DNA of 890 nucleotides from a phage: the sequence record AB841360.1; one strand, written 5' to 3'. Made by a program: the position numbers and the translations under genes. Positions 1 through 890 of this stretch are shown piece by piece. The notes under the pieces were generated by a model that ran no database searches, was not told the origin of the DNA, and saw only the letters and a list, made by a program, of their open reading frames with translations. Numbering within the stretch: position 1 is the stretch's first letter; each line of letters opens with the position of its first letter.

Positions 1-794
1 AGCTTCCCGCCTACCGTTACAGTTCTGCCATCTGCTAACTGAACTGTACGCTCATTATTCCCAACCGCCCCTTTCATTGATGCTCTCTGCATCGATAAAT
101 CCTGACCGCGCATCGTGATGTTCTGGCCTCGTGCTGTTAGCGCCTCGCCAGCCTGATTGCTGCGGATTGTCTCTGCCAGTCTGCCTCGGTCAATCTCACG
201 ACCAACGATTCTGTCTTGTGCCTGAAAATATTGTTCTGGACCAAGTGCAGCCATTCCAAGGTGATCAACAAACTCTGTGAAACCTTGTGGATTTTGCTGA
301 TACATTTTCGCCACATCCAGAGGGTCTACTCCGGCACGAGTAAGCTCAGATGAGTTGTTCTGCAACCATGACATCATGGCTTCTGGAGATGAAGCTGCGA
401 GTCTGGCACTTGCTGCCAGTGTACCGACAGTGGAACGCTGGTCTTCATCGACAAATTTCATGCCGTTTCTTACAGCGTCAAACTGCTCAGGATACTGTGA
501 TGCCAGCTTTCGCATTGCATCGCGGTCACCAGATGTATATGCATCAGCATAAGCCTGCTGAAACTCTTGCTGCCGCTTCTGCTGATCCATCTGCTTATAC
601 ATATCCATGACAGATGAAATGCCCTGCAAAGCCTGCAAGCCAACGTTATTACGTCCTGAGCGCTCCATTTCGTTGTTCTGGCGAATATAGGCCAACGCCT
701 CACTTACATCACTTGCCTTTGGCGCATTTGAGTTTTGCCCACCGATACCAGCAAGAAAACCGCCTGAGTTGATTCCTTGTTGCCAAGTAGCCAT
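1..794 (-). CDS. Hypothetical Gln/Ala/Met-rich protein, N-terminal 264 aa; 3' end lies beyond the window start. Possibly a phage structural or internal virion protein, but function is unassigned.
   Basis: Hand translation of the minus strand from ATG (complement of 792..794) gives 264 sense codons with no stop down to position 3. None of the plus-strand triplets at positions 3,6,...,792 is tta, cta or tca. A stop-free run this long is expected by chance at roughly 10^-5 to 10^-6 in random ~50% GC sequence. Translation begins MATWQQGINSGGFLAGIGGQNSNAPKASDVSEALAYIRQNNEMERSGRNNVGLQALQGISSVMDMYKQMDQQKRQQEFQQAYADAYTSGDRDAMRKLASQYPEQFDAVRNGMKFVDEDQRS... and ends in-window ...GQDLSMQRASMKGAVGNNERTVQLADGRTVTVGGK. 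The start is preceded by an SD-like AGGTG with a 5-nt spacer. By hand count there are about 28 Gln and no Cys. Product assignment is inference only; I recognise no catalytic motif. Confidence 0.85.
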   Translation of the reverse strand, partial: MATWQQGINSGGFLAGIGGQNSNAPKASDVSEALAYIRQNNEMERSGRNNVGLQALQGISSVMDMYKQMDQQKRQQEFQQAYADAYTSGDRDAMRKLASQYPEQFDAVRNGMKFVDEDQRSTVGTLAASARLAASSPEAMMSWLQNNSSELTRAGVDPLDVAKMYQQNPQGFTEFVDHLGMAALGPEQYFQAQDRIVGREIDRGRLAETIRSNQAGEALTARGQNITMRGQDLSMQRASMKGAVGNNERTVQLADGRTVTVGGK

Positions 795-798
795 ATTC

Positions 799-805
799 CC
801 ACCTT
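799..805 (-). promoter_or_regulatory. Shine-Dalgarno-like ribosome-binding site for the downstream minus-strand gene, overlapping the upstream stop codon (translational coupling).
   Basis: Minus-strand sequence reads 5'-TTT TAA GGTGGG AAT ATG-3'. AGGTG (complement of 800..804) matches the AGGUG portion of the canonical SD and sits 5 nt before the ATG at 794..792. The upstream TAA (806..804) overlaps the SD. Confidence 0.65.
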
Positions 806-890
806 AAAACAATGATCCAAGACCACCGATAATACCGCCACCAATAGCGCCAACAGCTGTACCTATTCCAGGCACCACAGAACCAATCAT
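804..890 (-). CDS. C-terminal end of an upstream ORF (or a complete 28-aa peptide if the ATG at 890..888 is the true start) with a glycine-zipper hydrophobic tail; 5' extent unknown.
   Basis: Minus-strand translation from 890 gives MIGSVVPGIGTAVGAIGGGIIGGLGSLF followed by TAA (complement of 804..806). Gly at residues 10, 14, 18 and 22 forms a GxxxGxxxGxxxG zipper in an otherwise hydrophobic stretch. The frame is open to the right window edge, so the ATG at 890..888 may be an internal Met of a longer protein. Confidence 0.55.
   Translation of the reverse strand: MIGSVVPGIGTAVGAIGGGIIGGLGSLF

Follow-up and report, generated by a model that had tools for sequence, protein, structure and literature searches.

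A glycine-rich, in-frame junction in a P22-like phage most probably separates two ejection-protein genes, homologs of P22 genes 7 and 20

In situ cryo-EM of infecting P22 has shown that twelve gp7* subunits make the extracellular channel, and that the C-terminus of gp7* forms a V-shaped helix pair in the outer membrane, with I191, L204, I208, I218, I222, L224, L225 and F229 as the residues of this hydrophobic hairpin (preprint 10.64898/2026.09.03.749273). In the same work, the N-terminus of gp20 lines the gp7 channel and makes hydrogen bonds via gp20 residues Q6, S10, N21, N23 and D29, and gp20 residues ~51-66 (with V51, L53, L56, L59, V62, I65 and Y66 as the residues of this outer-membrane helix) provide a third transmembrane helix per protomer, i.e., 36 helices in all (10.64898/2026.09.03.749273). 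P22 gp7, gp16 and gp20 are separate virion proteins, present in about 12, 12 and 30 copies, respectively (PMC8402733). A three-gene layout of this kind (OM pore, tunnel, IM) is general in podophages (PMC8954989 Table 1).

With these systems as the reference, we analyzed an 890-nt stretch of phage DNA (sequence record AB841360.1; hereafter “the window”, meaning the whole of this stretch), in which two glycine-rich open frames on the minus strand are separated by a single TAA. Re-reading the window bore out the letters of the junction as given in an earlier note on this DNA: the upstream frame ends ...GGLGSLF, and is followed by TAA, the 9-nt GGTGGGAAT, an ATG and MATWQQGINSGGFLAGIGG. We read positions 792-890 (minus strand) as the junction of two adjacent, separately translated genes of a late operon, whose glycine-rich segments would have different roles in an injection channel, and we give this reading a probability of roughly 95%. 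The upstream gene is a gp7 homolog (P22 ejection protein 7, PF25688), of which the last 28 codons (MIGSVVPGIGTAVGAIGGGIIGGLGSLF) lie at 807..890 on the minus strand, where the gene leaves the window; its TAA stop codon occupies 804..806 (minus). The intergenic spacer, which is 9 nt long and holds a Shine-Dalgarno (SD)-like site for gp20, lies at 795..803 (minus), and stop codon and spacer together read UAAGGUGG. The downstream gene is a gp20 homolog (P22 ejection protein 20, PF16928 Inj_translocase), which begins with the ATG at 794..792 (minus) and of which the first 264 codons lie at 1..794 on the minus strand, the frame after the ATG (MATWQQGINSGGFLAGIGGQNSNAPKASD...) staying open down to position 1, where this gene also leaves the window. 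The gp7 and gp20 frames are in one phase, with the stop (3 nt) and the spacer (9 nt) adding up to a multiple of three.

Both sides of the TAA are indeed glycine-rich, glycine making up 36% of the 28-residue gp7 tail and 32% of gp20 residues 1-19, against 9.8% across all of the 264 residues of gp20 that the window encodes. The further claim that these sides form one continuous hydrophobic segment of about 50 residues did not hold, with mean Kyte-Doolittle values of +1.54 for the gp7 tail, +0.31 for gp20 residues 1-19 and -0.25 for gp20 residues 1-30. Overall, our analysis partly confirmed the observation made in the earlier note and partly supported its interpretation. An internal duplication, i.e., homology of the two glycine-rich segments, was also considered and rejected: the two share only a 9-nt low-complexity match, and differ in hydropathy and structural roles.

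Searches with profiles and with the DNA placed both frames in known families. The PF16928 Inj_translocase profile matched the gp20 fragment of the window with 249.5 bits (cut-off 29.7; E 3.8e-74 to 1e-73) over positions 1-217 of 218, and a full-length gp20 of 453 aa (P0001), found on at least 24 contigs, is 100% identical to the 264 residues in the window. By megablast, the window matches P22-like podophages and also prophages in 1,107 out of 5,426 complete genomes of E. coli. In phages and E. coli prophages alike, the matched regions are annotated as ‘DNA transfer protein’ or ‘phage DNA ejection protein’. For the upstream frame, we made use of the near-identical loci L086-L089, four of the contigs that carry P0001, which match the window in all but one of its 890 nt, the sole difference being synonymous (GGT/GGC). 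In these loci the upstream gene encodes 224 aa and ends in exactly the 28 residues seen in the window, whose share of gp7 is the C-terminal eighth. The PF25688 P22_gp7 profile matched the gp7 of L086 with 298.9 bits (cut-off 28; E=3.9e-89) over positions 21-230 of 230; the 28-aa fragment from the window, which is too short, gave no match to this profile by itself. The C-terminus [GS][ST][LM]F-stop is found in 11 of 13 aligned gp7 sequences, with GSLLF and GSLL as the two variants.

The gene order agrees with these assignments. Phages Louie, Sf6 and P22 share the synteny gp4-gp10-gp26-gp14-gp7-gp20-gp16, as do an E. coli prophage and contigs with the same gp20; in this late operon the gp7 homolog follows the homolog of gene 14 (DUF2824) and precedes that of gene 20. 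In L086, gp20 (6001-7362) is followed by gp16 (PF26808; 7362-9227), with the gene 20 stop overlapping the gene 16 start, and in the lineage of the window genes 14 and 7 have 26 nt in common. We also aligned 12 diverse gp20 sequences, 49-93% identical to that of the window, in which residues M1, A2, T3, W4, G11, L14, A15, G18, N21, N23, A24, P25 and D29 are invariant. A search of genome contigs with a single gp20 sequence as query returned 3 loci, and a second search, of viral contigs with alignment A1 as query, returned among its best 80 matches mostly the same close relatives, with few new junction types. The likeness to phage ejection proteins suggested in the earlier note is thus upheld by Pfam and by synteny and, to judge from this evidence, the two genes of the window are homologs of P22 genes 7 and 20 and of Sf6 genes 11 and 12.

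To characterize the junction itself, we took segments of 600 nt around it from 172 loci, among which 97 are distinct. Of these 97 segments, 96 have a stop codon (TAA or TGA), a short G-rich, SD-like spacer and a MATW start (or LATW, when translation starts at TTG), the sole exception being L027, a rearranged locus without gp7. The duplex of the spacer of the window with the 16S anti-SD has an energy of -8.2 kcal/mol, near the strongest in the window, where the coding background averages -3.5 kcal/mol, with -6.5 as its 5th percentile and -8.3 as its minimum; the seven spacer types tested all pair with the anti-SD at -6.9 to -10.6 kcal/mol. Among the best 150 representatives listed, gp20-like ones reach down to ~27% identity; most full-length proteins of this kind align from their own residue ~8-12 to the query position just after the junction, and distant relatives, down to ~27-30% identity, begin within ~10 residues of the same point. 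The gp20 and gp7 alignments described above show that both termini are conserved as termini. The earlier note had favored two genes, possibly coupled, with a well-placed SD and had thought readthrough unlikely, and both views stood; the split ancestral gene or sequencing error that it had offered beside them did not.

We propose that the junction comes from an Escherichia phage or prophage of the P22-like (Lederbergvirus-type) kind, in which gp7 would end at the TAA, the 9-nt G-rich spacer would serve as the ribosome-binding site, and gp20 would begin at the ATG. Ribosomes that are done with gene 7 would probably initiate or re-initiate on gene 20. Such translational coupling over the 9-nt spacer is suggested by the spacing and the SD, and the idea fits the tight packing of this operon, i.e., the stop-start overlap of genes 20 and 16 and the 26-nt overlap of genes 14 and 7. 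On this reading, a spacer length of 9 nt, itself accidental, is all that brings the two frames into phase.

Comparison of the spacers in homologs bears directly on this last point. Spacers of 9 nt (TAA / ATG), with at least nine different spacer sequences, and of 12 nt (TAA / TTG; TGGAGGTGTCTC and TGGAGGTATCTC) place the two genes in the same frame. Different frames result from spacers of 8 nt (TGA / ATG), which occur in two lineages (GGTGAAAA and GGTGAAAG; GGTGTTAA), and of 10 nt (TAA / ATG; GGGGTAATCA, as in P22); L049, L080, L061 and L082 have spacers of 8 or 10 nt. In-frame spacers (9 or 12 nt) account for 11 of 15 junction types, and apart from the SD-like G-run the letters of the spacer vary freely among homologs. 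In P22, genes 7 and 20 lie at 2370-3059 and 3070-4485 of L084, and the spacer is that of Sf6, GGGGTAATC, plus one A. An exact-pattern scan of IMG/VR for this GGGGTAATC family gave, among at least 120 matches listed, a spacer of 9 nt in 72 contigs and of 10 nt in 48. In both length classes the upstream frame is open for ~250 codons in most of the listed contigs, and in the length classes that occur most often every downstream gp20 ORF is complete (424-491 codons). One-base indels in the spacer of a single family thus toggle the frame freely in nature (72 vs 48 contigs listed), and since they do so in a large share of natural genomes, P22 included, the frame shared by gp7 and gp20 is, as far as comparison of homologs can tell, incidental and not under selection. 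The shared frame reduces to chance and shared ancestry, relatives with 8- or 10-nt spacers being common and intact. A weak preference for the shared frame is conceivable, but the in-frame majority is accounted for by shared ancestry, the 9-nt spacer having been inherited.

The same data bear on the possibility of a programmed, low-level readthrough of the TAA in the 9- and 12-nt lineages, which would give a minor gp7-X-GGN-gp20 fusion in the virion or the channel. Such a product would agree with the count of 11 in-frame types out of 15 and with the 12-nt variant, which keeps the frame, but we consider it very improbable. At least two to three independent indel lineages (8 nt, 10 nt), which are abundant and include P22, the infectious archetype, break the frame relation, and the spacer sequence is free to vary outside the SD-like G-run. 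Furthermore, the stop codon of all in-frame types is TAA, an efficient terminator, and indeed the most efficient terminator in E. coli.

Less probable again, to the point of deserving hardly any credence, is that a nonsense mutation broke up a single ancestral gene, or that the TAA is a sequencing error, so that the true product would be one gp7-gp20 polypeptide. The coincidence of the frames, the glycine-rich composition that runs on across the stop, and the existence of two fused proteins (P0083 and P0084) could all be read in this way, but 96 of the 97 distinct junction segments, and every annotated phage examined, have the stop, and no fusion is found among the top matches in 5,426 complete E. 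coli genomes and 50,697 phage records. In addition, the two genes differ in frame in P22 and in 48 of the at least 120 listed contigs of the GGGGTAATC family, nearly all of which have both ORFs open; distant gp20 homologs (~27-45% identity) begin at the same point; the gp20 N-terminus is not hydrophobic; and the two fused proteins are the result of 78-nt deletions between 11-nt direct repeats, not of reading through the stop. The earlier note had named two separate genes with varying frame and spacing in homologous loci as the finding that would speak against its idea of a split gene or readthrough, and this is what our comparison of homologs revealed. A split gene is effectively refuted, and we return to two separately translated genes.

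The two fused proteins were the only ones with both Pfam domains in a search of 5.8 billion proteins: P0083, of 598 aa (UniParc/MetaClust), and P0084, of 623 aa, which is encoded on one 8.2-kb Logan contig (L085; run SRR17386249). Compared with Sf6, the fusions lack 78 nt, which comprise the final 6 codons of gp7, the stop with the spacer, and gp20 codons 1-16. In L085 this deletion is bounded precisely by the two copies of GCTGGTATCGG, a direct repeat of 11 nt that codes for A-G-I-G in each glycine-rich segment, and P0084 has a second deletion, of ~84 nt, inside gp7. With P0084 as the HMMER query, no fusion covering both halves was present in the best 150 of 1.84 billion 50%-identity representatives. 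Against complete E. coli genomes and phage records, a 281-nt fused query gave best matches in 2-3 pieces that in every case extend over 443 bp, and these therefore represent undeleted loci. Other deletion chimeras are present among the representatives, i.e., coat::gp7, gp10::gp7, gp26::gp20 and DnaB-like::gp7. The gp7-gp20 fusions are most likely microhomology deletions in decaying prophages. That the two, independent as they are, should be functional and not prophage debris is in our view unlikely, at long odds; if true, it would mean a covalent 1:1 gp7:gp20 outer-membrane pore, and a gp7 C-terminus and 16 N-terminal gp20 residues that are dispensable.

A deletion at the junction that leads to a single-chain gp7-gp20 is possible because the shared frame and the similar Gly/Ile codons give in-phase repeats. 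The window has a 9-nt, in-phase direct repeat of its own, TATCGGTGG, with copy 1 (codons I-G-G) at 823..831 and copy 2, in the N-terminal Gly-rich codons of gp20, at 739-747, both on the minus strand and 84 nt apart; it is analogous to the 11-nt GCTGGTATCGG of Sf6-type phages. The microhomology-mediated, in-frame gp7-gp20 fusion is the only mildly new item here; the gene 7/20 boundary of P22-like phages is an ordinary, already known junction, and has little weight as a discovery.

An independent 28-aa glycine-zipper micro-protein gene (e.g., for a small membrane peptide) that starts at an ATG at 890 and precedes gp20 would match the ORF listing, which gives a 28-aa ATG ORF at 804..890, and the hydrophobic nature of the peptide with its (GxxxG)3 motif, but its probability is close to nil, as in near-identical loci the frame extends upstream by 196 more open codons, to a complete P22_gp7 domain, phage Louie, with the same junction, reads ...KSGAMIGS... 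here, with an Ala codon, not a stop, directly before the Met, and the ATG coincides with the place where the window was cut. Because the frame stays open upstream in the near-identical loci, the ATG at 890, taken as a start codon in the earlier note, is not a start; it is an internal Met (...SGAMIGSVVPG...) of the 224-aa protein of the P22_gp7 family in L086-L089, and the 28-aa ORF is an artefact of the window edge. An internal Met at the edge of a window may thus mimic a mini-ORF.

With the two genes assigned, the glycine-rich segments can be placed on the P22 channel. In an alignment with P22 gp7, the 28 gp7 residues in the window start near the end of arm 1, pass through the Pro-Gly turn and take in all of arm 2 as far as the terminal Phe. 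The gp20 of the window aligns with P22 gp20 without gaps over residues 1-100. Its residues 1-47 (654..794, minus strand) keep all five of the residues that make hydrogen bonds in P22 (Q6, S10, N21, N23 and D29). In residues 51-66 (VGLQALQGISSVMDMY; 597..644, minus strand), the counterpart of the outer-membrane helix of P22 gp20, 5 of the 7 helix residues are identical and 2 are conservative (I59, M65). Searches of PDB sequences with gp7 and gp20 gave no entry that matches either; neither the in situ models of P22 nor the low-resolution work on Sf6 gp12 has a sequence among them.

The channel roles of the gp7 and gp20 of the window are transferred from P22, to which gp7 is 64% identical and gp20 49% identical over the first 240 residues. 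A dodecameric extracellular and outer-membrane channel, with the N-terminal 20 aa cleaved, is known for P22 only, and the gp7 of the window would be expected to form the same. The C-terminal glycine zipper of gp7 (G-x3-G-x3-G-x3-G) would then be arm 2 of a V-shaped hairpin in the outer membrane of the host, and, on the outside of the cell, the first 47 residues of gp20 would form the lining within the gp7 dodecamer, with the outer-membrane helix (residues 51-66) coming after them. The hydropathy of the two segments (+1.54 for the gp7 tail vs -0.25 for gp20 residues 1-30) agrees with the assignment of one to a membrane hairpin and the other to the lining of the lumen. The glycine-rich segments would, on homology to P22, be two functionally different, physically interacting pieces of two proteins, and this mapping onto the trans-envelope channel of P22 would explain the strong conservation of both termini.

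Among known systems, P22 shares with the window the synteny 14-7-20-16 and the domain families, a nearly identical stretch of gp20 residues 1-29 (MATWQQGINSGGFLAGIG[G/A]QN[S/E]NAPKA[S/R]D), and a gp7 that ends ...G[LG]LGSLF and is followed by TAA and a G-rich SD spacer. The two differ in that the P22 spacer is 10 nt (GGGGTAATCA) with the genes in different frames, whereas that of the window is 9 nt (GGTGGGAAT) with a common frame. They also differ in the gp7 hairpin, where arm 2 is 4 residues longer in the window (AIGGGIIGGLGSLF) than in P22 (GGGIGLLGSLF; alignment A2) and the turn is VPG in the window and GSSTPWG in P22, and in the central part of gp20, which is only ~49% identical. In Escherichia phage Louie (CDS0012/CDS0013), the junction (TAA GGTGGGAAT ATG) and the 28-aa gp7 tail are identical to those of the window; however, its gp20 is mosaic relative to that of the window, and overall the DNA of the phage covers 75% of the window at 88% identity. 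Genes 11 and 12 of Shigella phage Sf6 have the same 9-nt, in-frame layout (TAA GGGGTAATC ATG), but the gp11 tail (TSTPWGAGIGAGIGLLSSLF) and the gp12 N-terminus (MATWQGSNGGLLAGIGG) differ in sequence from their counterparts in the window. The G-x3-G-x3-G-x3-G of the gp7 tail resembles glycine-zipper motifs (GxxxGxxxG) as a motif only, and the match of PF13436 Gly-zipper_OmpA to gp7 (18.4 bits, E=0.0019) is under the gathering score of 27, so that gp7 is not a member of this family. Further afield, the T7-like gp14, gp15 and gp16 are three consecutive, separately encoded internal proteins that offer a functional analogy (PMC8954989), the first protein being the outer-membrane pore, the second the periplasmic tunnel and the third the inner-membrane part (PMC8954989). 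T7-like gp15 is 747 aa long, compared with 453 aa for gp20 of the type found in the window, and the likeness between them is one of function.

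The gene for P0084, one of the two proteins in which gp7 and gp20 are joined, is an in-frame gp7-gp20 fusion of 623 aa located at L085:4604-6475 on a Logan contig (SRR17386249), with the fusion junction near L085:5164-5200. This fusion originated when 78 nt were lost from between two copies of an 11-nt direct repeat (GCTGGTATCGG), which bound the deletion in the L085 gene. The gp7 part of P0084 also contains a second, internal deletion of ~84 nt, and the other fused protein, P0083 (UniParc UPI0004AFA8FC), contains the first, 78-nt deletion only. The genes neighboring the fusion on L085, gp14 and gp16, appear intact. 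The window itself contains an in-phase 9-nt direct repeat on the minus strand (TATCGGTGG, 823-831 and 739-747), with copies 84 nt apart, both read as I-G-G codons, one in the gp7 tail and the other in the gp20 N-terminus; this repeat is a potential substrate for an in-frame fusion deletion of the kind seen in L085.

Other chimeric proteins involve different partners. Four proteins from P22-like prophages are deletion chimeras, joining coat protein to gp7 (P0135), a gp10-like protein to gp7 (P0148), the tail needle gp26 to gp20 (P0139, with the exact join ...AAII-MATWQ), and a DnaB-like protein to gp7 (P0234), which suggests that internal deletions are common in decaying prophages. In P0186, a 480-aa representative from the HMMER scan, where the gp7 domain covers Pfam profile positions 19-215 of 230, ~270 residues following ...GSVVPG stand in place of the last hairpin arm, and this C-terminal part has no Pfam match. 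P0186 may be a natural fusion of gp7 to a non-gp20 partner, from another phage group, or a chimera. At L027:1174-3856 (IMGVR_UViG_3300029253_000364), the gp20 homolog has a shortened and changed N-terminus (VNKCRLLAGIGG...), and the locus is rearranged or defective, since an unrelated 441-aa ORF stands before this gene, where gp7 would be.

The gp20 gene is mosaic, with the limits of megablast matches marking recombination breakpoints within it: UPF_BP1, phiv205-1, and JEP4 are among the phages matching window positions 1-204 only (~97%), the Kapi1 match is limited to 640-890 (87%), and most E. coli prophage matches end at query position 797 or start at 62. One large lineage (L003:4039 and 38 IMG/VR loci) starts gp20 with TTG, at a junction reading TAA TGGAGGTGTCTC TTG, where the 12-nt spacer contains a perfect GGAGG; the N-terminus (M)ATWQQ is retained.

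Upstream, in the window's lineage, gp7 as annotated begins within the gene 14 homolog (DUF2824), giving a 26-nt overlap (L001:3413-3438, L086:5317-5342), whereas a 2-nt gap separates gene 14 and gp7 in Sf6 and P22. The first ~20 residues of gp7 are also wholly unlike those of Sf6/P22 (MLIFQIANKH... versus MLYAFKLGRK...); in P22, the N-terminal ~20 residues of gp7 are cleaved.
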